DNA of 64,000 nt from Octopus vulgaris. Taxonomy: Eukaryota. Under the pieces are notes generated by a model. That model saw nothing but the letters and a program-made list of their open reading frames with translations, searched no databases and was not told the origin of the DNA. The stretch lies in assembly GCA_951406725.2 (NCBI GenBank), contig OX597821.1:55738001-55802000 (forward strand), in the 5' to 3' direction. Position 1 is the first letter of the stretch, and each line of letters starts with the position of its first letter. Positions 702 through 58,635 of the stretch are shown piece after piece. The translations under genes and the position numbers were made by a program.

Positions 702-1546
702 TAGCAGAATTGCCCGGCGTTGCTCGGGGCTGAATTACTTGAAAGTACTGTTAATGATTGCACTGAATGATGATGATTATTCAGGCAAATATTGATATAA
801 GTTTACGCTGTGAGATAAGGACTTAACGATCAAACGTGTGCCATTGCATTGTTTTGGGGGAACCAAATTTCTGATGAGCATTATAGGGGCACCAACTTTA
901 AGTTTGAGAATATGTGGTGGTAGTCCGGGGTGCTCAAAGGAATTGAGTACCTCTATTGGATAGTTGATGACGTCCTCTGGGTCAGGAGTAGTATCGATAG
1001 ACTGATATACATAGACTTCCCCAGGAATGAGTTTTAGCATTTCATCATTAATATGGTGAACAGTTTTATTCCTTGGGGCCAGTATAGCCTTTTTGCCAAT
1101 CCAATCCATATTCTAATAATTAGCTTGTAGATCTTGGAACACTGCATCTCTGAGATCAGAAGGCGTCTTAACAATGGTACAAATGGAATCGATGGCAATA
1201 TTACCATTTTCATCCCCTGGTATTTTGCCTTCGCCAAGTGCAATGAGGGTGTGAGGAAATGCTGCTGATGTGATATTACGTCGCATATGAGCACGCATAT
1301 TGGTGTGAAGTTTGAGAGTTACTTCCCTTAATTTTAAAAAAATGCATTAAAATGGGAAAAAATGATGGTAAATTATTTGTAAAATCGTAGACTCATCGTA
1401 GACGCGCGCTAATACCCAGAAGGGCTCGATATGAATCACGACTATAAGATACTCGGTTTTGGTTAAACTGCATCGCAAAATGTGGGAGTAGTTAGGAATC
1501 TAAATCGGAGTAGACAGACACACAACCTTTCTTTTATATATAAAGA
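701..1546 (-). mobile_element. Non-autonomous Helitron with both termini
   Basis: Minus strand reads A|TCTTTATATATAAAAG at the 5' end (1546) and ends with the hairpin CCCGAGCAACGCCGGG then CTAG|T (701). This is the canonical TC...CTRR arrangement inserted between A and T. Confidence 0.9.
777..1310 (-). pseudogene. PIF1-family helicase fragment (Helitron RepHel C-terminal part)
   Basis: ORFs 1113-1298 and 777-1109 contain AILAPRNKTVHHIN and GLPPHILKLKVGAPIMLIRNL...CNGTRLIV, which are typical PIF1/Helitron helicase motifs. Broken by a stop and truncated. Confidence 0.9.
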
Positions 1547-6960: not shown

Positions 6961-7320
6961 GTTATGAACGTTGAACCTTTCTATTAATGCAAAACTGTCA
7001 ACTAATAGTAATTCCACTCACAAACGCAATTCTATTTGTATTTGCACGCTACATGGAAATTTTCCAGTTTTTGTATTCTGTACCAAGATAGTGGTAAACG
7101 TTGACTCTCAAACAAACTTCTACCCTGGACTGACAGCCCATGTATTAAGATATATTACTTGTAATGACATTCTTTAATCAACTCTAACAGGAAGTTTTCG
7201 AGTAGATATTTGAAATGAATTTGAAGATTGAGCAAACATGTCACTGTATTTGGATCCTCCTTGCTTTTGCGAGCAGCAGAAACAAGCTGTATTATCATCT
7301 TAAACACAAGTATTTTGATA

Positions 7321-7539
7321 TTGGTTTCAAATTTTAGCACGAGCCCAGCAATATCGGGAATGGGGTCAATTCGAATTCATCGGTCATAGTGCACAACTGG
7401 TACTTATTTTATCGACCCGGAAAGGGATAAACGACTAAGTCGTTCTCGGCAGAATTTGAACTCGGAACTTATTGACGGGTGAAATCCCGCTAAGGATTTT
7501 CACTCGGCATGCTGCAGATTCTTCCAGCTCGCCACCTTC
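7321..7539 (-). mobile_element. tRNA-derived SINE family A
   Basis: Matches the well-preserved copy at 37836-38069 (GGTACTTATTTTATCGACCC...GAATTTGAACTC...CCAGCTCGCC). Confidence 0.85.
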
Positions 7540-7568
7540 ACAACATTTTTAGTATTATAACAGAAGAA

Positions 7569-7786
7569 GGCGGTGATCTGACAGAATCGTTAGCACACTG
7601 GGCGAGATGTGTAGCGATATTTCGTCCATCTTTACGTTCTGATTTCACATCATGCCGAATTTGACTTACCCCTTCACCCTTTTAGTGTCGATGAAATAAG
7701 TACCTGTTGAACACTGGGAACAATGTAATCGACATGATACGTTCTCTGAAATTGCTGGCCTTGTGCTAAAATTTGAAACGAATATT
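7569..7786 (+). mobile_element. tRNA-derived SINE family A
   Basis: GGCGGTGATCTGACAGAATCGTTAGCAC head and GTCGATGAAATAAGTACC core. Confidence 0.85.
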
Positions 7787-8629: not shown

Positions 8630-9882
8630 CAGGGGTTGGAGAAAATAATGGAAACACCTAAAAATTTCAAACAAATTTATTTTAATATGGGGTAGGACCG
8701 CCTTGGCAGTAATTACAGCTTGAATTATACGAGTTAGAGACTCGTACAAAGTTTGAATTTGTTTCCAAAGGAAAAATTCTTCAACTAAAACAGTTTCTAG
8801 TACTTGTAATGATGATGGTGGATGATATTGACTCCTTACTTGTTTTTCTAAAATGCACCATAAATGTTCAATAATGTTGAGATCTTGGAACTGTGGTGGT
8901 CAGATAATAAGTTCAACTTCAATAGAATGTTCCTCGTGCCATTCAGTAACAACTTTAGCTGTGTGAATTGGTGCATTATCATCCTGAAAGATTGCGATTC
9001 CCTCCAGAAACAGTTCCGCAACTATATGATGAATTTGATCAGATAAAATGCTTAAAAAGTCTTGACTATTAATTCTGCCATGAAGGGAAACCATTGAGCC
9101 GGCAGATTTCCAAGATATACCCCTCACCCCACCAGATCATCGAAGATCATTCCCCATGTTTAACAGTTGGAAAAAAGCAGTCCGGCTCAAATGCTTCTTT
9201 TGGCTGTCTCCACACGCACAGTCCGCCGATGGTCAGAAATAAGGTAAAAGATGACTCGTCAGAGAAAATAACATTCTTCCACTGCTCTGGGAACCAATTC
9301 TGTAGGTTTTTACTCCACTCTAAATGCTATGCAACGTTTGTTTTTGAAAGTAGTGGTTTTCTGATTGCAGCCCTCCCATGAAATACGGCTTTATGCAGCT
9401 CCCAGTGAACAGTTTTTGTCCAAACTGGGTGCTCGAGGTGGTCATTAAGATCCGCAGTAATTCTGGGAGCTGTACTTTTGTGATCCTTTCTAACAATTCG
9501 CGTAAGAGTCCGACGATACCTATCTGAAAGTTTTGGTTTTATTCCGGAGTTTTGTTTCCCTCTTTCTCAAAGGCTGTCATTACTTTCGAGACAGTACTTC
9601 TTGATACACCAAACATTTCGGCTGTTTTCGTTATGCTAGTGCCTGCCATACGAGCACCAACAATTTGACGTCTTTGAAAGTCCAATAGATCTGTCATTTT
9701 AATGAATTTGAATTACCTTTTGCTGATGACATCTGAAAAGAAATAGCAATTTTAGCAAACAATATTAAGCAACACTAATAATAAATATAAAAAAAATATA
9801 CAAGCTTTTGATAGTTTTATAGACATTCCAAAAATTCCGATGCTATAATGCTAGGTGTTTCCATTATTTTGTCCAACCCCAG
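8630..9882 (-). mobile_element. Full-length decayed Tc1-superfamily transposon with DD36E spacing (Incomer-like)
   Basis: TIRs CAGGGGTTGGAGAAAATAATGGAAACACCTA / TAGGTGTTTCCATTATTTTGTCCAACCCCAG with TA flanks; 1253 bp. Minus-strand transposase from ATG ~9697: MTDLLDFQRRQIVGARMAG, VIFSDES, FQDDNAPIH, DLNIIEHLW, with stops and frameshifts. Confidence 0.93.
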
Positions 9883-11745: not shown

Positions 11746-12299
11746 TAACTGATTTCCACAACTATACACAGTTTAACTTTTCTGTCCTATGTATGAGTAA
11801 CTGTGCATGTGTGTGTATGTGTGAATATATGTATACGACTATATATAAATATATTTACATATCAAGTATAAGCGCATACATATTCACACACAAATATATA
11901 GGTATATACGCATAAATATCACTGATGTGGTAGCGTTATTATTTTTCATAAATAGCAACGTTTGCTATAGGGTATACAAAAGTATTTTAGCCGTTACTAC
12001 CTTCATAATAATTTTTAAAATTAATTTAATTCACTAGACAGATAAGACATTAGTAAACATGTCATATTTATTGTATCATCTCAGCAAGGACAGAAAAAAA
12101 TATATATGTGCCTTTATGTTTATGTGTGTGTGTGTGTGCGTGATGTCTATCTGTTTGTATGTATGTGTGTATAAGTGTGCGTACGCGCGATGGTTTGTGT
12201 GCGTGTGTATACCATTATTCGATTTCTATAAAGTTTTTCTTTATTCGGCTGTAATATTTTTACTGATACGTGTCTTGTTGCAGGTACCCACATAAGATA

Positions 12300-13600
12300 T
12301 ATTTTCATCTACCTCTATATACCTATAACATTCCTCATCAGATATAGGGAAACAGTTAAGTCATTGGTGGAGTTGATGGAGATACTGTTAGTCTGGTTTA
12401 CAGTTTTCCCTCTTTTCACAACCATTTAGCAACATTTATCCTTACCAAACGCCAACCCTATAATCTTTGAGAATGTTGTAACCAGGTCAAGGCTCTTTTT
12501 CATTTCATGCATTTTCTTGGCAAATAGTTTCAAGTCATCCACAAAGAAACAGTGTGTATTTTTGGTATTTCTGTTTCCTTGTGAACGAGTGAGATATCGT
12601 TCAGACTTCCTTAGTAACAATGACGAGAGATTTACAGAAAGTATAAACAGTATCACAGAGAGGCTGTCCCCTTGGAATATACCACTATGATGTATTTTAT
12701 CAGTGATAATACAACCACTCCTAACATTTTACTTCAAAATGGTAGCCCATGATGAAACCAGGTGAGCTATTGTTTTGACTAAGGTCACTGGAAGTTTGGC
12801 AAGTCGAAGGGCATCTAGCAGACTTAAAGGCTTTCTTGGAGTCCAGCCTGATTAACACTAGGTTCTTCTTATGATCCCACACTCCTGAGATTACAGTTTT
12901 GTTCATTAACAATTGTTCGGCACATCCCTAGATCCCCTTCTTCCCATGTGCTTATTCTTGTGATAATAATATTACTTTCTCAATGGTTGTGGAGGAAGAA
13001 TTCTAAACTTGTTGCATATATTAATTTCTGGCATGTGGGTGGTCCTGCTTTGGGGCTCACTTTTGTCTCTGCCAGAGCTAAGCAGTGTGGTATGCTACTA
13101 TTCCCATCGAGACCTTGAAAAGATATCATCGGTAGAAGGTACCAGTATCCAATAATGAAGTCTATTCAAGGTGCATTTCCCTCCTGAATTTTCTGGATTA
13201 TAGTCACAAGGGCATTACCATCAATGCTGTAATTCTTATGCTCAATGCAGGGACATTTATAACTTCGAATTTATATCAGCTATATTGCGACTCGGTTAAA
13301 TTCTATCTCTTCACTCCTGATATTCCTCCAGAAGGAGTCTATCTCTTCTCTTCTCATAAAGTAGCTTCTATGATATTTACTGATTCTCCTCTCATGTCTC
13401 TGTATACTGCTACCTGGTCCTGGTACCGGTTAAATTCTTAGTTGTTTTTCTTTCGGTTATTCTCCTCCGATGTCAGAGTTTCTCACTGACAGATTTTAGC
13501 TCCTGCTAGAGGGTTATCAGTTCGCATTTCAGTATTCTCTTTTTGCTATCTACAAACCACTTCTATCTCCTTCTTCACTTTTTCTTAGCGTGACGTATAG
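12300..13600 (-). mobile_element. R4/Dong-like (REL-endonuclease) non-LTR retrotransposon RT fragment
   Basis: Minus-strand peptides LDSKKAF, GIFQGDSLSVILFILSVN and HCFFVDDLKLFAK...LDLVTTFSK; multiple stops. Confidence 0.85.
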
Positions 13601-15864: not shown

Positions 15865-16480
15865 ATGGTTTCGGATTTTTCCACAAGGGCAGTCATTTTA
15901 GAGGAAGGGATGTGTCGATTACATTGATCTCATTGTTCAACGGGTACTTATCTACCTCCAAATGATAACAGGCAAAGACGACCTCGGCGGAATTTGAACT
16001 CAGAACGTGGTGACAGACGAAATACCTATTTCTATTTCTTTACTACCCACAAGGGGCTAAACACAGAGGGGACAAACAAGGACAAACAAACGGATGATTA
16101 AGTCGATTATATCGACCCCAGTGCGTAACTGGTACTTATTTAGTCGACCCTGAAAGGATGAAAGGCAAAGTCGACCTCGGTGGAAATTTAACTCAGAACG
16201 TAGTGGCAGACGAAATACCACTAAGCATTTCGCCCAGCGTGCTAATATAACAATGATAATAATAATAATAATCTTTCCTACTGTTTTCTACTCTAGGCAC
16301 AATAACCGAAATCGATTAGATCGACTCCTGTACGCAATTGGTACTTAATTTATCAACCCCGTTAGGATGAAAGACAAAGCCGACCCTTGCGGAATTTGAA
16401 CTCAGAGCGTAAAGACAGACAAAATACCGCTAAGCATTTTCGCCCGCCGTGGTAACGTTTCTGCCAGCTCGCCGCCTTAA
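15865..16480 (-). mobile_element. Three stacked SINE family A copies
   Basis: GGAATTTGAACTCAGA or a close variant recurs at ~15990, ~16182 and ~16391, each with flanking family-A sequence. Confidence 0.88.
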
Positions 16481-16679
16481 CAATAACGATAATAATGACG
16501 ATGAGGTTATTGCTTGTTGTTGTTGTTGTTGTTGTTTATCGCCAGGACTTGACATGACGCGAGCGTTCTGAGTGATTGACTTGTTTTCATTGTTATAAGT
16601 CTATACTTGTTTCCTTTTTTTTTTGTTTCAGAGTGTGTCTTATTTTGAGCGGACCATCAAGTTCTGAGCAAACGTTAAG

Positions 16680-22407: not shown

Positions 22408-22634
22408 TAGTTTCTGTTTTTGTGTCACTACAAGAAAATTGTAAGTAAAATTATTAAAATACTAACAAAGAACCACTTTTTTTGGCAATATTATTGGATA
22501 AGTTATCCGCTGTCTTTGGACATAAAATTTCATATTTTTATTTCTAATAATCCCTAAAGTTTTATATCAAAAACGTAAAAAGTATTATTTTAACAGTTCT
22601 TCTATTATATGACTACCTCAACTGCATTAGGTAT

Positions 22635-23168
22635 ATTGATTTCAAATTTTGGCACAAAGACAGCAATTTCGGGGGAGGTGATAAGTGGATCACATCAACC
22701 CCAGTCTTTAAAGGGTATTTTAACGACGCTGATGTGATGAAAGGCAAAGTCGAGCTCGGCGGAATTTGAACTCAGACTGTTGACACGGATGAAATGCTGC
22801 TAGGCATTTTGCTCAGTGTAGTAACGATTCTGCCAGCCTGCCGCCTTAATTGCATTAGATATATTGGTTTCAAATTTTGGTACAAAGCTAACAATTTTAT
22901 TGACGTTGTATGTCTCTCTAAACGGATATCCTCAATCAAAGAATGAAAAACAAAGTCGACTTCCGAGGAATTTGAACTCAGAACGTAAAGATAGACGAAA
23001 TGTGGCTAAGTAATTTGTCCCGTGTGCTAACGATTCTCTGGTCACCATCTTGATGGTGATGATGATGATGATGATTTTACTCAAGAGAATGAGACACTGG
23101 GGTCGATTTCATCGACTTAGCTCCGTTTCCAAAATGGCTGGCCTGGTACCAAAATTTTAAAGAAATAT
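22635..23168. mobile_element. SINE family A cluster: two (-) copies and one (+) 3' fragment
   Basis: AAGGCAAAGTCGAGCTCGGCGGAATTTGAACTCAG at ~22741, a second copy at ~22950, and CACTGGGGTCGATTTCATCGAC at ~23095. Confidence 0.85.
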
Positions 23169-25645: not shown

Positions 25646-27499
25646 ATTTTAATCCTTCAGCTATTCAATGTTATGGGAGGCCTGCAGTTGCCTATATTAT
25701 TGATTCTGTTATTGTTATTTTTTTTAAATAATTACACTAGATAATAACAGAATTAATGATATCTTCACACATTAACTTTACAGGGATTATTTTTCTGGTG
25801 AATTGTTTGCTCCATATCGAGATTTTTTTCACACTGGTGGCTGTCATGATTTCGGCGCAAAACAAATCAGTTGCAGCGCTGACTTCAAAACGACTGGTTG
25901 GGAGTCTCTTTCATGGTAACGCGTGCTGAGGAAGCTAAGGCTATTTTTGCCAGTGCAGAAACTGGTCGGTCCACGTAAGTCCAAATACTTAAATGTACGT
26001 TGGGAGATTGTGTTAACCTGATTTGCCTTCAGTTGATTTCTGTAGTTATCAGCAGTGTATTTTGGCGATGTAAATAAGAGTTTTGACTGTTATTTCCAGC
26101 AAGTAGACATACATAGTATGTCCTTTTATTAATTTCAATCCTTCAGTTATATATATATATATGAATGTTACACACACATGCACACGTCATAATTTATATA
26201 AAGAGCTTGAATCAAAGATGAATGACTTTAAGCTCCACTGATGGAAAAGTGCCTGATCGTTCAAACGCTTCCTTCTACTAATATAAATATTTAACCACTT
26301 TGCTACATATTGATTCCTACACGTTGCTACATATTGAGGCGGTGAGCTGACAGAATCATTAGCATACCAAACAAAACATGTGGACTCAGAATGTGAAGAC
26401 AGACGAAATGTTTAGCAGCATTTAGAATTATTACTTATACTATGCTTCTAAGAATAAAGTAAAACGTGCACTCAGCACATTTCCTAGAGTTAATATACAC
26501 TTTAATGGTTGTAGTTGCACATTCCGATATTTAAAGTTTCAGAAACCTTTGCATAGATAATCTTCAAATTTGGATGAGCTCATGGAGACAAAACCTTTCC
26601 AGTTGCTTCATATATAAATTATTTCCCTGTTCCTATACCCACAGTTAAATGAACTACGTAGAGGAACTATCTTGCTCTGAAACACAATGACACACTTTAA
26701 GAAAACTGAAAGTATTTCTTGCGAGACAATAAAGAAACGGTACGACTATTCGACTATCTTACAGAAGTTTTTAGATTGCTATGTTACTGGAACAAATACC
26801 TTCTAAACCTATCAATTTTAAGAAGAAAGTTATAAAGAAGAAATGTTATAAGATTTGACAACCTGTAGGAATTTTCCGATAAAATAATTTAAAGCATATA
26901 TCCACCGTAGAAATATGAGTTTAAAGAAAACATTGGCAACAGAAAAAGTAATAAAAGACTACCAATAATGTTTTGACAAAACGAAGTACTGTAAATGTAT
27001 CAAAAATATCGTCGACAACTGAGTGTAGTATTAGAAGAGAACAATGTTGAGCAATGGAATTTCAAATATACAGAATACTAGTGAACTGAATTTCTTAAAC
27101 TTCATATATAACTGATATGTTGAAAAACCAAAAACATCTCCGTAAAATGTATTCCGTTAGATTCAAATGAATAGCTACATCAAAATATAACTAACAATTT
27201 GTAACAATATAAATCACTCTACAAACTTGTGTTTATATTATTAGTAAATAATGTCCATCTATATTCGAATAACTTCTGTGATAAGATAAAGTAGAAGTCG
27301 AATTTGTTCATTACTTGAAATGTATCGGAATTATTTCTTTAACCGCTTTAGAGATATCTCCCCACTGTTGCAGGAAATCCATAGGTTATTAGTTTATTAA
27401 TTTTATCGCCAATAGTATTTCAGAACAATTAGCAGTATAATAATCTCTCCAAACCACTAGAAGGCTTTTGATTTTTCAGACTTCCCCACTTCATAGCAA

Positions 27500-32547: not shown

Positions 32548-32621
32548 TAGAATTAGAATTATAAAGAAAGTGACATCGTAATTTTGGAGAGACAGATTCT
32601 GGAGGTTTTAATTTTGTTGCA

Positions 32622-33201
<580 letters not shown>

Positions 33202-34132
33202 TATAATAATAATAATGATAATAATAATGATAATAATAATAATAATAATCATAATAATAATACTAAAAGAATTGAAATAGGACAAGTGTATATGATTGTT
33301 ATTAGCAACTAAGTTAAGAATTCTAGTGTCTGTCTTTCCAAAATTACGATGCCACATTTTTTAAAATTATTCTAATTTATATGCTTTGACATATTTATAA
33401 TATAATTCTGTTCTTGAACTGCAGTTTAAAAGTTTTCTCTTTAGTAAAGAGTATACGAAAATTTAGTTACACACAATCTAGTTATTTTGAAAAAGCATAA
33501 CTTTCTGACATTTCAGTTGCTTCTAATGTAATCAACTACATCTCTATAATGATATTCACGGTTCTTTCGTTCTTTACTATTTTTCTAATTAACATTAGCA
33601 TGTATATCGTTAATCATTAACACTGTGTGCCATACCTCGCCAGTTTGAACAAAATACTTATCTGTCGTTGCCAGAAGGAGAGGAAATATCGAATGTACTT
33701 TCTACTACAATGTTCGTAAAACTTTAATAACTATTAATCAGCTTATTTCCCTCCACAATAGGTTCGTCTGTATCTTCCTATATATCATTCTATCTCCTCT
33801 TACTGTTTCTTTTTATGCTTTCACTTTCTCTCTCTATTTCGAGTTCTATACCTCCATACAGTTATCTATCTATTTATTTATCTATCTAAAAGTATTGCAC
33901 TTCTTCGCCACAGCTTGCTATGAATCTATCAATGCATCTTACTCAGAGGTGACCTAGAGGTGGTTTAACCGTTTCCTCGTCTGTTTTAGTGCTGTGTGAC
34001 CGTTTATATGAAGTGAGACATTTGATAACACTTTCCAATAAATTTTCTATTATCACGGAAATGAAATCGTAGCTAATGGGAATTAACTGATCGTCATATG
34101 ATATAACACCCTGAAATTTGAATTTTACTGTG

Positions 34133-34460: not shown

Positions 34461-35197
34461 CAGGGGTTGAACAAAATAATGGAAACACTTTAAAATTTCA
34501 AACAAATTTATTTTAATATAGAGTAGGACCGCCTCTTTAGGAGTAATTACAGTTTCAATTCTACGAGGTATGGACTCGTACAAAGTTTAAATTGTTTCCA
34601 AAGGAATATTTGTCTATTCTTCAGCTACAGTTCTTGTAGTGATGATGGTGGAGGATATCAACTCCTTACTTGTTTTTCTAAAATGCACCATAAATGTTCA
34701 ATGATATTGAAATCTGGGGACTGTGGTGGCCAGATAAGATGTTCAGCTTCACTAGAATGTTCCTCGTGCCATTCAGTAACAACTTTAGCAGTGTGAATTG
34801 GTGCATTATAATCCTGAAAGATTGCGTTTCCCTCCTGAAACAGTTCCGCAACCAGAAGATGAATTTGATTAGATAAAATGCTTAAATAGACTTGACTATT
34901 AATTCTGCCATGAAGGGAAACCATTGGACCGGCAGATTGCCCATCCCCCAGATCATCACAGATCCTCCTCCATGTTTAATAGTTGGAAGAAGGCAGTCTG
35001 GGTCAAATGCTTCTTTTGGATGTCCCCACACGTATACTCGGCCGGTGGTCGGGAATAAGGTAAAGGACGTCTCGTCCGAGAGAATAACATTCTTCTACTG
35101 CTCTAAGGACCGATTCTGTAGGTTTTTACTCCACTCTAAACGCTTTGCAACGTTTGTTTTTGAAAGTAGTGGTTTTCTGATTGTAGCCCTCTCGTGA
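34461..35197 (-). mobile_element. Truncated second copy of the DD36E Tc1 element
   Basis: TA|CAGGGGTTGAACAAAATAATGGAAACAC TIR; FQDYNAPIHTAKVVTEWHEEHSSEAEHLIWPPQSPDFNIIEHLW; colinear with 8630-9380. Confidence 0.92.
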
Positions 35198-36299: not shown

Positions 36300-38125
36300 A
36301 ATCAATTCGAACAGAAAATTGATGCTAGGAGCCGCTGGCAACCAAATAGAAAAGATCCACAAAAAGTAATAACAACACTAGTGAGAAGACTTCCAACTCC
36401 ACCACCACCGCCAGTGGCAACAGCAAACCCACCACCACCAACATTACTAACGAAACAAAAACAAGAACAAGGAAAACGAATCATGCAATCGGCTGTTGAC
36501 GGTTTCGCCGACGAGATGCGGCAAGTGTATAAATAGAAGTGAAATTAAAAAAAGCAAAATGTGGGTGACATATGGCACTGAATGACCCTAGATCTGTCCA
36601 GCAAGGAATTAATTTGCGGATAGTTCTATAGAAAACAATTAGAACAAATAGTAGAAGAATGAAACTGGCAATACAATAGCAGATAGAGAATGTCTGCGAC
36701 AAATTTGGAAAAGCATAACTTATATAGCTTGGGGAATAAATATGGAATTGTGAAATCCACTTTAGATGAAAAGACGAAAAGTCATTCAACAACGACTCTA
36801 ACAAATGACAAATCCTCCCCACCCCATTTACCTTGGCCGAAGGGTGGTGTCTAAAATAAGAATATTAAGTATGCCACCAGAAATCAGCATTTACTGGTTG
36901 GCCACAGCAGTTCTGTTTAACATAAAAGATTCTCTGCTGATTCAGAAATACAGAAGTAGAACTAGTTAGAACAGTGTATGTAGTTCCTAACACAGGCAGA
37001 TTATCAAGTGTCAAGGTCAGTCTGGTTTTCAGAACCCTAGCGGATAGCACAAAGTGTCACGTGGCTGTTGGGAACAGAAGGTAGAACTATCAACTGTACG
37101 GGGACATAAACCGCCTCAAAGAATTTTGCCCACAGCTAAGGAAACCAACACTTCGCCCCGTCAACACCACCACCACAACAAAAACAACAACGACAAAAGC
37201 AGCAAAGTTAGGAACAACAGAATCAGGTGGCCACAACATCATCAGCAAGAGGAAAGTAACAGCTGCAAAAGCAGCAGCAACAACAATTACTGCAACATCC
37301 ACAGCAGCAGCAGTTACCCACCACCAACATCAGCAAGAGAATCAGAAAACCACAAAACAACAACAGCTACGTCAACAAAACACCAAAAACCTCCCCAAGA
37401 CATACTCCTCCCTCTTTTGGACAATCCGCAATCATCTGTAATGAAGGAGTGGTGAAGAGCCTAAATGGCAAACGGTTAGCAGGGCCAAGAAAAGAAACAA
37501 GAGCAATAATACAGCAACACAAACAACAGGCAGATACGAACAAATGAGGGAGATGTCTTTGAGCGATACTCGACCCTGAGCAAATGTGTGTGGTACCCAA
37601 CTCTATGGGACGGATGGCAGTCCGGCATACAGATGGATAGACTTCAGTGTCTAACTCGACAGTAATCTACGACTCTCGTCAAGACGGTGGTTGGGGCGTT
37701 GCGAAATGCCGATAACAGCCATGGAAATACAGAATGCGATGCTGGGAAGCAAATCACCTGGTTTTGCTGATGTGCCCTACGAACTTTACTTTTATATGCT
37801 AAACTTGTTTGTCTGCATTTTAGCAGATGTATACCTATTTCTTTATTACCCACAAGGGACTAAACATAGAGGGGACAAACAAGGACAGACATAAGTATTA
37901 AGTCGATTACATCGACCTCAGTGCGTAACTGGTTCTTAATTTATCGACCCCGAAAGGATGAAAGGCAAAGTCGACCTCGGCGGAATTTGAACTCACAACG
38001 TAACAGCAGACGAAATACCGCTAAGCATTTCGCCCGGCATGCTAACGTTTCTGCCAGCTCGCCGACTTATAGCAGATGTATACCGCAACTGACAGCAGTA
38101 CGAGAGAATTCGTTGTTCTTTAAGT
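36300..38125 (+). mobile_element. Decayed, internally deleted Tx1/L1-like LINE (ORF1 remnant plus ORF2 fragment)
   Basis: Degenerate knuckle near 37060-37135. At 37691-37835, CEMPITAMEIQNAM..KSPGFADVPYELY matches the L1/Tx1 KSPG.DG.P.E.Y motif, and it continues as RN*QQYERI after the SINE insertion. Confidence 0.75.
37836..38069 (-). mobile_element. SINE family A, full copy with 15-bp TSD
   Basis: TAGCAGATGTATACC at 37821-37835 and 38070-38084; head GGCGAGCTGGCAGAAACGTTAGC and B box GAGTTCAAATTCC on the minus strand. Confidence 0.95.
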
Positions 38126-47794: not shown

Positions 47795-47920
47795 TTTACT
47801 TATTAATCGACCCAGAAAGGAGGAAATACAAAGTCAACCTCAGCGGAATTTGAACTCAGGACGCAACGGCAGGCGAAATACTGCTAAGCATTTCACCCGC
47901 CGTTCTAATGATTCTGCCTA
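47795..47920 (-). mobile_element. SINE family A fragment
   Basis: AAAGTCAACCTCAGCGGAATTTGAACTCAGG...CTAAGCATTTC. Confidence 0.8.
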
Positions 47921-48389: not shown

Positions 48390-48580
48390 CTATATTTAAG
48401 AGATGAGGAATTATGTACATTATTTACATTATTTACATTTGACGGATATATGTCCTCATCTTCTTTGTTAACACATTTCGGCTATTGAAGGCTGGAGGGT
48501 ATATCAGCCGAAACGTTGTGTTAACAACAAACAAGATGAGGACAAATATCCGTCAAATGTAAATAATATAAATAATGTTA
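48390..48580. mobile_element. Fold-back PLE-terminal element with a 5'-truncated hammerhead
   Basis: Inverted arms ~48417-48483 and ~48506-48578; TGA A GGCTG-GAGGGTATAT-CAGCC GAAA CG TT at 48486-48517. Confidence 0.65.
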
Positions 48581-48604: not shown

Positions 48605-49375
48605 TTAGGTCATCACATAAATAATGCGGTTTTTTTTCAATCGCATGAAATAAAGAGGACGGGATAAACCACCTGCATCAACTTGCTATAAAAGCAGCTG
48701 TTAATTTTACCCTGTATTGATTCTTAGTGCAAGTTTTGAAGAGTGCAGTTCGATTATAATAGTTATTTTTTTCAAAGCTATAATGGAAGCGACAAAGGAG
48801 CATATTCGACATATTTTACTTTATGAGTTCAGTAAAGGTAACAACACAACGGTAAGTGCGAGGAATATCAATGCAGTATATGGGGATCGGACAATAAGCA
48901 TAAAGCAGTGTCAAAAATAATTCCAGAAATTCCGAGCCGGAAACAGTCTAGAAGCCGATACTCGTCCATGAAGATCTGTAGAGCTCGAAGAGGACATCCT
49001 GCAAACCTTGGTGGAACAAAATTCCACGTAACTGTTGAAGACTAGCAGAGAAGCTGGGATTTGGTCATTCAACCATTCATCGACACCTGAGTACAGTCGG
49101 AAAAGTCAGAAAATTAGATCAATGGGTCCCTCATGAACTTTCCGAGTCTAATCGCATGCAGAGCGTGAATGTGTGCTCTTCTGTGCTGTCACGTCTCACG
49201 ATTGAACCGTTTTGGGGCCTAATATTGACTGGTGACGAGAAATGGCTTCCCTAAAAAAATGTCAAGCGCTGAAGACAGCGGGTAGCGAAAGTAAAAACAG
49301 CAACACCCCAGGCTAAATAAACTCTTCACCTACGTAACTTGTTATCTGTTTGGTAGTATATGAAAGGTTTGGTCC
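48605..49375 (+). mobile_element. 3'-truncated mariner transposon
   Basis: TIR-like TTAGGTCATCACATAAATAATGCGG; MEATKEHIRHILLYEF..., WVPHEL (~49122) and ILTGDEKW (~49221); stops and frameshifts. Confidence 0.92.
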
Positions 49376-54805: not shown

Positions 54806-54981
54806 ATATAAACCTTTGAAGTGTACAATTGGCATATTATTTACTTATACATACAAACAAACAAACAAAAATACAGCGTTGTTGATGTTGAAATTCCAGT
54901 GAAGGAACCTTGGACTTAAGTCAGAAACCGGCTCTTTCTCTACTGGCAAGAAATCTTCAAATAAACCCGGGCAATCACCTA

Positions 54982-55055
<74 letters not shown>

Positions 55056-55229
55056 ATATATATATATATGTATATATATATAACGTAAATTATACTAGCC
55101 ATCTCAATATGGCTAACCACTAAGGGTAGGTGTTACTGAAAAATGTTAATAGGAAGGTTTGGAGATACATTTTTCAGTAACACCCACCCTTAGTGGTTAG
55201 CCATATTGAGATGGCTAGTATAATTTACG

Positions 55230-55298
<69 letters not shown>

Positions 55299-55467
55299 GG
55301 TGATTGCTCGGGTTTATTTGAAGATTTCTTACCAGTAGAGAAAGAGCCGGTTTCTGACTTAAGTCCAAGATTCCTTCATTGGAATTTCAACATCAACAAC
55401 GCTTTATTTTTGTTTGTTTGTTTGTATGTATAAGTAAATAATATGCCAATTGTACACTTCAAAGGTT

Positions 55468-55472
<5 letters not shown>
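54806..55472. repeat. Long near-perfect palindrome (arms 54806-55146 and 55167-55472, 20-nt spacer)
   Basis: Arms are reverse complements apart from a few substitutions and TA-tract length; part of the arm recurs at 56402-56545. Confidence 0.92.
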
Positions 55473-55514
<42 letters not shown>

Positions 55515-55588
55515 ATTCGGGGTGAGTACTTGATAATTGTAAGCACCTGTATATACCGTTTGGTGGTGTAGGTGGTGGAGTAAATTGT

Positions 55589-56299
55589 TCAAAATAAAAA
55601 CATGATGCCAAGGATTCAGCGGTACATATGTTTCGGGCCTTTATTAGACAGATTTATAACAATGCATAATGTATGTCTGTGGCCTTCTTCAGCCGCGCAC
55701 AACAACTTCCACAAGGACATGTGTTACATCAAAAATTCTTGGTTGGGGATGCAAATCCCCTCATTCGCGTACGACATAATGCGGCAACAGCATAGAATTG
55801 AAGCGTCCATCTCGTTCTTCTCTCAATGTAGAATGAGGAAATTTGGATGTTGAAGTAATGTAAATAAATTAATAAATAAATACATATATAGACGTGAAGG
55901 GACCTGGTAATAAGAGTAAATAGGGGTAAAGATGGAGGAGCGAGAATTCAGGACGAATGATAAAAAATATATAAAAAGTGTAAGTATAGAAAAATATAAA
56001 AGTGTAGAGTATAAAGATATAAAGAGATATAAGGAGATATAAAGGGGATATAAAGAATATAAAAAAAATATAAATGAATATAAAGGTATAAAGTTATAAA
56101 GTAAAAATAGAAATAGAAATAAAAGTAAAAATAGAAATAAAAATAAAAATAAAAATAGGAATAAAAATAATAAAAAATGTAAAAGAATATAAGGATACGG
56201 GATGTACATCCCGTATCCTTACGCATTGTTATAAATCTGTCTAATAAAGGCCCGAAACATATGTACCGCTGAATCCTTGGCATCATGTTTTTATTTTGA
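55589..56299. repeat. 77-bp inverted repeats (55589-55665 and 56223-56299) around an A-rich spacer
   Basis: TCAAAATAAAAACATGATGCCAAGG...TTATAACAATGC and its reverse complement; the ORF track shows the identical peptide [21 protein letters not shown] on both strands. Confidence 0.9.
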
Positions 56300-56301
56300 T
56301 C

Positions 56302-56340
<39 letters not shown>

Positions 56341-56545
56341 CACACATACTGATAAACAAAAAACAAACACAACACTGTGTGTGCATAAACACACACACGT
56401 TATACATACATACAAAGAAACAAACAAAAATACAGCGTTGTTGATGTTGAAATTCCAATGAAGGAACCTTGGATTTAAGTCAGAAACCGGCTCTTTCTCT
56501 ACTGGTAAGAAATCTTCAAATAAACCCGAACAATCACCTACATCA

Positions 56546-56690
<145 letters not shown>

Positions 56691-56724
56691 GTTTATTATG
56701 TTTATATATATATATATATATATA

Positions 56725-56935
56725 TAACGGGAAGCTTTATGAAAATAAACAAAAGACGAAGGCAGGTGGAATATAAACAAATAATTGTATTAGTATGACG
56801 CTCAGGAATATAAATAAAACAAGTCTTTTACGTTTCGAGCCTACGCTCTTCAACAGAAAGATACACAGAAAAGAAACACGGAGAGAAACAAGGAGAGAAA
56901 CAAGGAGAGAAAAAAAATGCGTGCAGAAGCTAAAA
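56725..56935 (-). mobile_element. PLE-terminal-type short repeat with an HHR-like motif
   Basis: Minus strand 56823-56860 reads TTGAAGA GCGTAGGCTC GAAA CG TA; adjacent to (TA)n. Confidence 0.45.
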
Positions 56936-56940
56936 GTATA

Positions 56941-57639
56941 CTACCCATCTCAATATGGCTAACCACTAAGGGTGGGTGTTACTGAAGCCCCAGGAGATCA
57001 TCGATCCAGCTGGCTTTAAACACACTTTCTGTGCCCTTATGGTATTCGCAAAAAGAGGTCATCCCCTCTCGTAAACCTAAGTGATACGCATGGACTATAG
57101 TTTCGAGGTTCTTGCCTCTCGTCATCGTACGGTAATTACCGGTTTTCGATGAGGGGAGACCTGTTTGCGAATATCTATTTAATGTTTTTCCCAGCAACCA
57201 CTGTCACTGATTTCGAAAAACTGTCTGAAAGCAATAATAAATCTCTGAACGCGATGTAAACAGTAACCGTTCGACAACGTAAAGTATATTAGACATCTCA
57301 ATATGGCTAACCACTAAGGGTGGGTGCTACTGAAGCTTTTAGCCCCAGGAGATCATCATCTCCAGCTGGCTTTAGACACACTTTCTGTGCCCTTATGATA
57401 TTCGCAAAGGGAGGTCATCCCCTGTGCGTATCACTTAGGTTTACGAGAGGGGATGACCTCCCTTTGCGAATATCATAAGGGCACAGAAAGTGTGTCTAAA
57501 GCCAGCTGGAGACGATGATCTCCTGGGGCTAAAAGCTTCAGTAGCACCCACCCTTAGTGGTTAGCCATATTGAGATGGTTAGTATACTTTACGATGTCGA
57601 GCGGTTACTGCTTACATCTCGTTCAGAGATTTATTATTG

Positions 57640-57640
<1 letters not shown>
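56941..57640. mobile_element. Retrozyme-like unit: ~1.4 tandem copies (-) joined head-to-head to a (+) copy
   Basis: CATCTCAATATGGCTAACCACTAAGGG at 56946 and 57294 (348-bp period); the (+) copy spans 57424-57640. Confidence 0.8.
57087..57131 (-). ncRNA. Minimal type-I hammerhead motif (C3 mutated)
   Basis: CGTACG ATGACGA GAGG-CAAGAA-CCTC GAAA CTATAG TC CATGCG: perfect helix II, palindromic helix III and GUC triplet. Confidence 0.72.
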
Positions 57641-57697
<57 letters not shown>

Positions 57698-57727: not shown

Positions 57728-58635
57728 GACTTAGTTACAACATTTTCAAAGAGAGTCTTGACCTAGTTACAATATTAGCTACAATATTCTCAAAGGATTT
57801 AGAATTGGAGTTTGGTCATATTAGTATATGGCTGTGAAAAAGGGGGGAAACAATAAACTAGGCTAGTAACATCTCAATCAATGATTTGACTGTTTGCCCT
57901 GTATCTGACGAGGAATGCTACAGGTGTCTAGGAGTGGAGAAAAATATATCTTACGGTGGCACCTGTAACAAAACACATGTAACTGAAGAATATTACAGCC
58001 AAATCAAAAAAACTTTGGACCTCAGAACTCTCTGCATTCAATAAAACAGTGGCTCAGTAAAACGTGACAAACGTTGCAGACTTTATGGAGTTAACACCGA
58101 AGATATCCCCCACATAATAAGCAGTTGTCCGAAAATATCATCACGGAATTATCTACCGATGAGATACGATGTTTCAGCAAGGATACTGTATAATAAGATC
58201 AGTCGGAAGTTTATCCGCGAAGAGAAAGATATAAGAACCCAAAGTATGATAGAAGCCAAAGCCACTCATAATAAAACGGAGTACTCGTAGAATGTCCCAA
58301 TGAAATCCTGGATAAAATGTAAACACAATAAACTTGATATAATGATTTGGGATAGAGAAAAGAAACTGTGTACAGTCATGTAAATCAGCTGCCCAATGGA
58401 TGCTAACATAAAGCTGAAGATCAGTGAAAGAGAGAATACCTATGCTGAACGAATTGTGAAATCTGACGTTACTCTATCCAGATTACAAGTTCAGGTTTAT
58501 ACCTATAATTATTAGGGCCCTTGGATACGTAATACACTTCATAAAAACAAAAAAAACAATTTTGAGAAATTAGTCTTCTCAAAACTAGAAAGGAGAAGGC
58601 TAATTCGAAGACTACAGATCCAAACCATCACAGTA
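57728..58635 (+). mobile_element. R4/Dong-like LINE C-terminal fragment (CCHC plus REL endonuclease)
   Basis: DLVTTFSK, CRLYGVNTEDIPHIISSCPK, KCKHNKLDIMIWDREKKLCTV and FIPIII.ALG; same family as 12300-13600. Confidence 0.85.

Follow-up and report, generated by a model that had tools for sequence, protein, structure and literature searches.

Beside a predicted ribozyme cleavage site, an inverted, 5'-truncated copy of a hammerhead-bearing repeat begins within the window, the 64,000-nt stretch of Octopus vulgaris DNA analyzed here. The locus raises the question of whether this 5' end was made by self-cleavage of the template RNA, as a sequence-only reading of the DNA had proposed. We regard the locus as a head-to-head insertion of a non-coding hammerhead repeat of ~355 nt, likely mobilized by a Penelope-like reverse transcriptase (RT); the full account, in which the inverted copy came from ribozyme-cut RNA, has about the same chance of being right as wrong. 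Positions in the repeat were numbered from the predicted hammerhead scissile bond, with +1 as the first base 3' of GTC, and the features are listed in Table 1.

The window is AT-rich (GC of 28-42% per 2 kb; CpG observed/expected, 0.78) and contains many microsatellites. Its coding traces in 172 frames searched against Pfam were transposase and RT fragments only. Pif1 helicase domain and Tc1/mariner-type transposase fragments were found by Pfam at 780-1112 (-), 8903-9566 (-), 34661-34975 (-), and 48705-48917 (+). A dispersed repeat, which we take to be SINE-like, occurs at 7318-7785, 15866-16483, 22633-23037, 37835-38069, and 47797-47918, once as a diverged palindrome.

Table 1. Features of the hammerhead repeat family and of the 57-kb insertion (window coordinates; signed positions refer to the predicted scissile bond)
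Feature	Position	Strand	Description
Inverted 5'-truncated copy	57424..57641	+	218 nt, +2 to +219; ends on (TA)n
Palindrome loop	57424..57447	+	24 nt, +2 to +25, exclusive to the (+) copy; weak internal 4-bp pairing, fold -1.9 kcal/mol
(-) arm of palindrome	57230..57423	-	+26 to +219; 8 substitutions relative to (+) arm
Whole (-) copy	56934..57423	-	490 nt, 1.4 monomers, partial tandem (period 348-356); ends near +167
Predicted RNA hairpin	57447..57465	+	+25 to +43; kept with different letters in the 32.9-kb copy
(TA)n tract	57641..57692		At 3' end of (+) copy; likely target DNA
Fragment of another repeat with minimal hammerhead-like motif (56856-56829)	56727..56933	-	Between 3' end of (-) copy and left (TA)n-rich tract (56544-56726)
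Type I hammerhead motif	32877..32921	+	Canonical core with a 6-bp helix I, an imperfect helix II, and a palindromic loop on helix III; cleavage predicted 3' of 32915
Type I hammerhead motif of (-) copy	57087..57131	-	Core with A at position 3; 5/6 pairs in helix I, a 4-bp helix II, and a palindromic loop on helix III; cleavage predicted at 57093/57092
Second family copy	32622..33084	+	1.3 monomers, period 355; near +60 to near +167; ends on (TAA)n
Second head-to-head pair of the family 3' core	55082..55231		Loop of 20 nt (55147-55166); both arm starts, near +89 and near +109, are distant from the cut site

The hammerhead repeat family

The repeat unit is ~355 nt long (period 348-356), with a GC content of 0.43-0.44. 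The copies at 32.6-33.1 kb and 56.9-57.4 kb have an identical internal order and are 77% identical over 466 nt. No Pfam match was found in frames of at least 62 aa over the repeat units, which are non-coding; no GIY-YIG endonuclease was matched in the 172 window frames, and the RT and GIY-YIG ORF of an autonomous Penelope-like element is absent from the hammerhead repeat. Contigs of four sequencing runs (X1, X2, X3, and X5) were aligned on 56934-57340, and 2722, 2856, 2696, and 1600 contigs aligned, respectively. The family is therefore high-copy, at 1600-2856 contigs per run. The exact 22-nt core pattern gave no match in metagenome, viral, and prokaryote genome contigs. Monomers folded better than shuffles (z of -2.4 and -4.6; 60 shuffles).

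These properties fit a member of the metazoan non-LTR retrozymes, a known kind of element: a non-coding tandem unit within 150-450 bp, GC below 50%, and one type I hammerhead per unit. The non-coding ~355-nt tandem unit with 43-44% GC, its single type I hammerhead, and its high copy number resemble the retrozymes described by Cervera and de la Pena (2020, PMC7229834) and Li et al. (2026, bioRxiv 10.64898/2026.07.22.740005), among which mussel units are given as 350-390 bp. According to these sources, retrozyme RNAs of invertebrates undergo self-cleavage and build up in linear and circular form (PMC7229834), and non-LTR retrozymes have been proposed to derive from Penelope elements as non-autonomous forms (bioRxiv 10.64898/2026.07.22.740005). 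Unlike retrozymes with two full tandem hammerheads, the family has 1.3-1.4 units per locus here; each window locus carries one hammerhead, whereas Li et al. take at least two consecutive complete hammerheads per locus as their criterion of activity. In the available text of these sources, neither inverted copies nor 5' end positions are described. A 73-nt inverted pair (78%; 32551-32620 and 33305-33377), unrelated to the family, flanks the copy at 32.6-33.1 kb together with the (TAA)n tract of that copy.

The hammerheads were recognized by a relaxed scan, which returned three motifs; a scan demanding a closed helix II returned none, and an Rfam search gave no match at the gathering score. Measured against the type I definition (core CUGANGA / GAAA / NUH with helices I-III), neither of the loci at 32.9 kb and 57.1 kb is fully canonical. 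Helix II of the 57.1-kb motif is perfect, but the motif carries A where C3 is expected. The 32.9-kb unit had been described as intact, and this holds for its core, but its helix II is imperfect and it is only 77-85% identical to the 57-kb copy, for which the adjacent (-) unit is the closer comparator. In geometry, with the 6-bp helix I and the short palindromic helix III loop, the window motifs match the canonical metazoan type I form, which is reported to work as a dimer (PMC4209133). Helix I is paired at 6/6 and 5/6 positions using different letters in the two loci. The helix III loop occurs in two palindromic versions, which differ by a paired double change at 57097/57098; the two changes are of near-equal depth and are linked in all four runs. 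The hammerhead helices are thus preserved by covariation. The paired loop change and the monomer folds suggest that the hammerhead structure is under selection.

Core position 3 is U in 68-98% of the aligned depth, mostly opposite G8, with A at position 8 in a minority, and hammerhead activity in the subfamily with U at this position is uncertain. In run X1, five variants at 57118-57125 near the core have similar depth (about 3.6-4.0 thousand), which suggests a subfamily whose core carries U3-A8, a combination known as a natural hammerhead variant (PMC4209133). Hammerhead-like motifs of other families were also observed at 25926-25971 (+), 63578-63544 (-), 56856-56829 (-), and about 48482-48516 (+), and the one at 63.5 kb combines a canonical core with a helix II of 4 bp and a helix III that is palindromic. 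Behind an RT fragment at 12230-12728 (-) (RVT_1, E 3e-7) comes a motif that resembles a hammerhead core but has long spacing, and a related 3' part lies at 57780-58016, immediately to the right of the 57-kb insertion. This is possibly a Naiad-like remnant.

Structure and register of the 57-kb junction

The arms at 57230-57423 and 57448-57641 are 194 nt each and 96% complementary, separated by 24 nt, with 8 substitutions and no indels between them. Their alignment bore out the reported boundary, at which the (-) arm ends at 57423 and the (+) copy begins at 57424. Because the arms differ by substitutions and by no indel, the data argue that the palindrome would be real and aged, not a sequencing chimera. 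Of 138 comparable columns, 4 distinguish the two arms from each other, whereas 9 and 12 distinguish them from the adjacent monomer; three letters common to both arms are absent from both comparators. Judged from these letters, the arms likely go back to a single template or a single subfamily, and the (-) copy does not appear to be one circle copied 1.4 times.

The (+) copy opens at +2 after the predicted bond (GTC at 32913-32915, C at 32916), and the (-) arm opens at +26, the second base of the conserved hairpin at +25 to +43. The earlier claim that the copy starts one base 3' of the scissile bond was thus confirmed at 32913-32916, and the adjacent (-) unit (GTC at 57095-57093) gives the same register. 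The 16-mer that opens the (+) copy occurs at three sites in the window (57424; 32917, exact; and 57091 on the (-) strand, with one mismatch), where 0.23 are expected by chance, and its letter at +2 is found in 92-99% of the aligned depth. Since +1/+2 is a CpG, the start may be read as +1 or +2: T57423 may close the arm, or it may be a +1 C that has decayed. If ends were uniformly distributed, the chance of a 5' end falling no more than 1 nt from the bond would be 0.9-1.4% for one end and 2.5-4% for three ends.

Outer ends were also shared within the family. Ends at +167 to +171 are common to four arms in the window. At 57229 (+220), 40 contigs of run X3 diverge from the reference into diverse AT-rich sequence, so the 3' end of the (+) copy is a recurrent family end. 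In each of the four runs, 25-38 contigs depart at 57279 (+170) into a common 15-nt stretch, which may mark an end or a subfamily. The locus therefore combines a partial tandem with an adjacent, inverted, 5'-truncated copy, head to head, and a one-sided 3' extension of about 52 nt, measured from the ends near +167-171 in the four arms versus +219 in the inverted copy. The target flanks are (TA)n or (TAA)n, inside which a target-site duplication cannot be read. This back-to-back layout is a known mark of Penelope-type retroelements and needs no ribozyme.

Origin of the inverted copy

In the proposed route, tandem transcripts would self-cleave, probably as dimers, to linear monomers that start at +1. 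The RT would initiate within such an RNA at +219, on one nicked strand of (TA)n, and run off the cut 5' end; another antisense strand, beginning at +26, would then be joined to the end of this cDNA. This second strand could be a second cDNA on the other target strand, primed near +167 and extended through an uncut or circular junction, or it could be an older copy; the joining would possibly be a snap-back followed by annealing across the common 194 nt. A second antisense template is needed because the sense strand runs 270 nt beyond the content of the (+) copy.

That the 57424 end itself was made by the ribozyme cut is about an even call, and it rests on one event. Of the claim that self-cleavage had produced the 5' end of the RNA, the register was right and the reading is a fair one, but a single junction takes it no further than this balance. 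Among family 5' ends, one of three lies at the cut site (57424; those at 32622, near +60, and 55147, near +89, do not), and the same fraction holds for short-loop head-to-head inversions in the window. Both long copies, 32622..33084 (+) and 56934..57423 (-), read through the predicted cut site of the one hammerhead that each contains.

Contig data were also searched for marks of the cut. Aligned depth at -5 was 32-64% of that at +2, but this drop across the cut site was rejected as evidence, as an equal fall occurs on the other side (0.09-0.42 at +26/+28), the drop coincides with variant positions, and summed contig depth does not equal copy number. Piece starts at +2 (2 in the best 32 of 9937 pieces) were discounted, since contig branching could also account for them. 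No end, joint, or pile-up at 57090-57093 was found among the matches listed (24 of 562 loose-end rows; four runs); this blank neither supports nor refutes cleavage, because the 57423/57424 junction itself is also absent among the matches listed.

Precedents from other elements point both ways. For R2, a ribozyme cut shapes genomic 5' junctions (Eickbush et al. 2013, PMC3774820), and snap-backs are reported often to come after full-length cDNA (PMC11371274), a sequence of events that also has precedent in PMC11331408. For an anole element, hammerhead mutants are reported to be without effect on in vitro insertion, and no RNA-seq reads end at the cut site (PMC11167929). Among the papers listed in literature searches, no title or opening abstract reported that 5' junctions of Penelope elements or retrozymes peak at a hammerhead cut.

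The strongest alternative, to which we give somewhat less than an even chance, is an ordinary Penelope-type inversion whose 5' end is independent of cleavage. The RT would have stopped or switched template on uncut or circular RNA, near the cut by coincidence, either at random or at local structure such as helix I or the +25 to +43 hairpin. This would agree with the start of the (-) arm at the second base of that hairpin, with the commonness of read-through copies, and with the inversions shown by Naiad elements, which lack canonical hammerheads (PMC8557442). It also agrees with two other short-loop inversions in the window, which have the same 20-22 nt loop and sit away from a cut site; because of these, inversion needs no ribozyme. 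What it demands is the 2.5-4% coincidence estimated for uniform ends, and the cDNA end at +1/+2 is not specially prone to self-pairing. The ranks of that end in self-pairing were unremarkable (90-405 of 445 and 112-177 of 418 positions), which also disfavors microhomology-driven snap-back as the sole cause.

The short-loop palindromes in repeats of the window number three and belong to two families: 57424-57447 (24 nt), 55147-55166 (20 nt), and about 48482-48503 (about 22 nt). In the palindrome near 48490, the join falls within a degenerate core that belongs to a different hammerhead-like motif, and it lies upstream of the triplet of that motif. If the offset of 20-24 nt is fixed, its cause may be the geometry of snap-back or the footprint of an RT. 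The 55-kb palindrome (54806-55472) spans (TA)n and 179 nt of flank, is 97% complementary, and has the same flank again at 56406-56543, as if fold-back synthesis there had copied target DNA too. A recent inverted pair of 88 nt (55582-55669 and 56219-56306; 98%) is nested in the same region.

A stricter version, in which one cDNA reached the cut end, folded, and made both arms, is highly improbable. The sequence-only reading had assumed this order of copying to the end and then folding back, and its junction geometry does stand on the bottom strand, which runs antisense to +2 and then sense from +26, an order that self-priming can yield; on the top strand, antisense runs down to +26 and sense follows from +2, which self-priming cannot yield. 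The weak 4-bp pairing in the loop, the closeness of the arms to each other (4/138, against 9 and 12 of 138 to the adjacent monomer), and their three private letters speak for a single cDNA. The (-) copy, however, extends 270 nt that the 218-nt (+) copy cannot template, so the anatomy conflicts with strict fold-back unless a longer (+) copy once existed. Later truncation of the (+) copy is unlikely, as the end at +219/220 recurs in the family, and no target flank is duplicated at 57 kb, in contrast to 55 kb.

The least credible origin is a fold-back artefact of library or assembly, or else an inversion at a replication fork in which retrotransposition played no part. The absence of the junction among the matches listed for four runs would fit this origin, and palindromes are known to trouble assemblers. 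Against it stand 8 substitutions and no indels between the arms, outer ends that both coincide with ends of other copies, and a layout that agrees with published Penelope-like insertions.

Comparison with known elements

The insertion resembles those of endonuclease-bearing Penelope-like elements (Arkhipova et al. 2013, PMC3846280; Craig et al. 2021, PMC8557442) in its partial tandem, its head-to-head inverted 5'-truncated copy, its one-sided 3' extension, and its (TA)n targets. It differs from them in having no ORF and in an extension of about 52 nt versus the reported 30-40 nt. Self-priming has already been proposed for Penelope-like inversions in these two sources; here the junction is placed relative to the hammerhead cut, unlike in the accounts that their available text gives. 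The anole Poseidon element (PAc; Frangieh et al. 2024, PMC11167929) likewise has two 3' end positions downstream of its hammerhead and AT-rich targets, and its purified Penelope-like protein is reported to cut and extend both strands and to start inside the RNA at two sites. Its hammerhead, unlike the one here, overlaps the ORF start and was dispensable in vitro. R2 has a different class of ribozyme (HDV-like) and a different enzyme, with a site-specific rDNA target (PMC3774820; Zhang et al. 2024, PMC11371274), and its case rests on many junctions and in vitro cleavage, whereas the present one has one junction and a predicted cut.

The role of hammerheads in Penelope-like elements has been called unclear (PMC8557442), and in the single biochemical study insertion in vitro did not require cleavage (PMC11167929). 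If cleavage sets the template end, inverted arms across the family would start in a sharp peak at +1/+2, with partners about 20-24 nt further in; we hold this family-wide pattern only tentatively and think it unlikely on present evidence. Should 5' ends peak at the cut across the family, hammerheads would have their equivalent of the R2 case; if they do not, the 57-kb locus would be an ordinary insertion. If the pattern is true, the head-to-head offset would be fixed by the enzyme, as a snap-back loop or the footprint of a dimeric RT, and the +1/+2 peak would mean that hammerhead-cut linear monomers do serve as in vivo templates of a Penelope-like RT.
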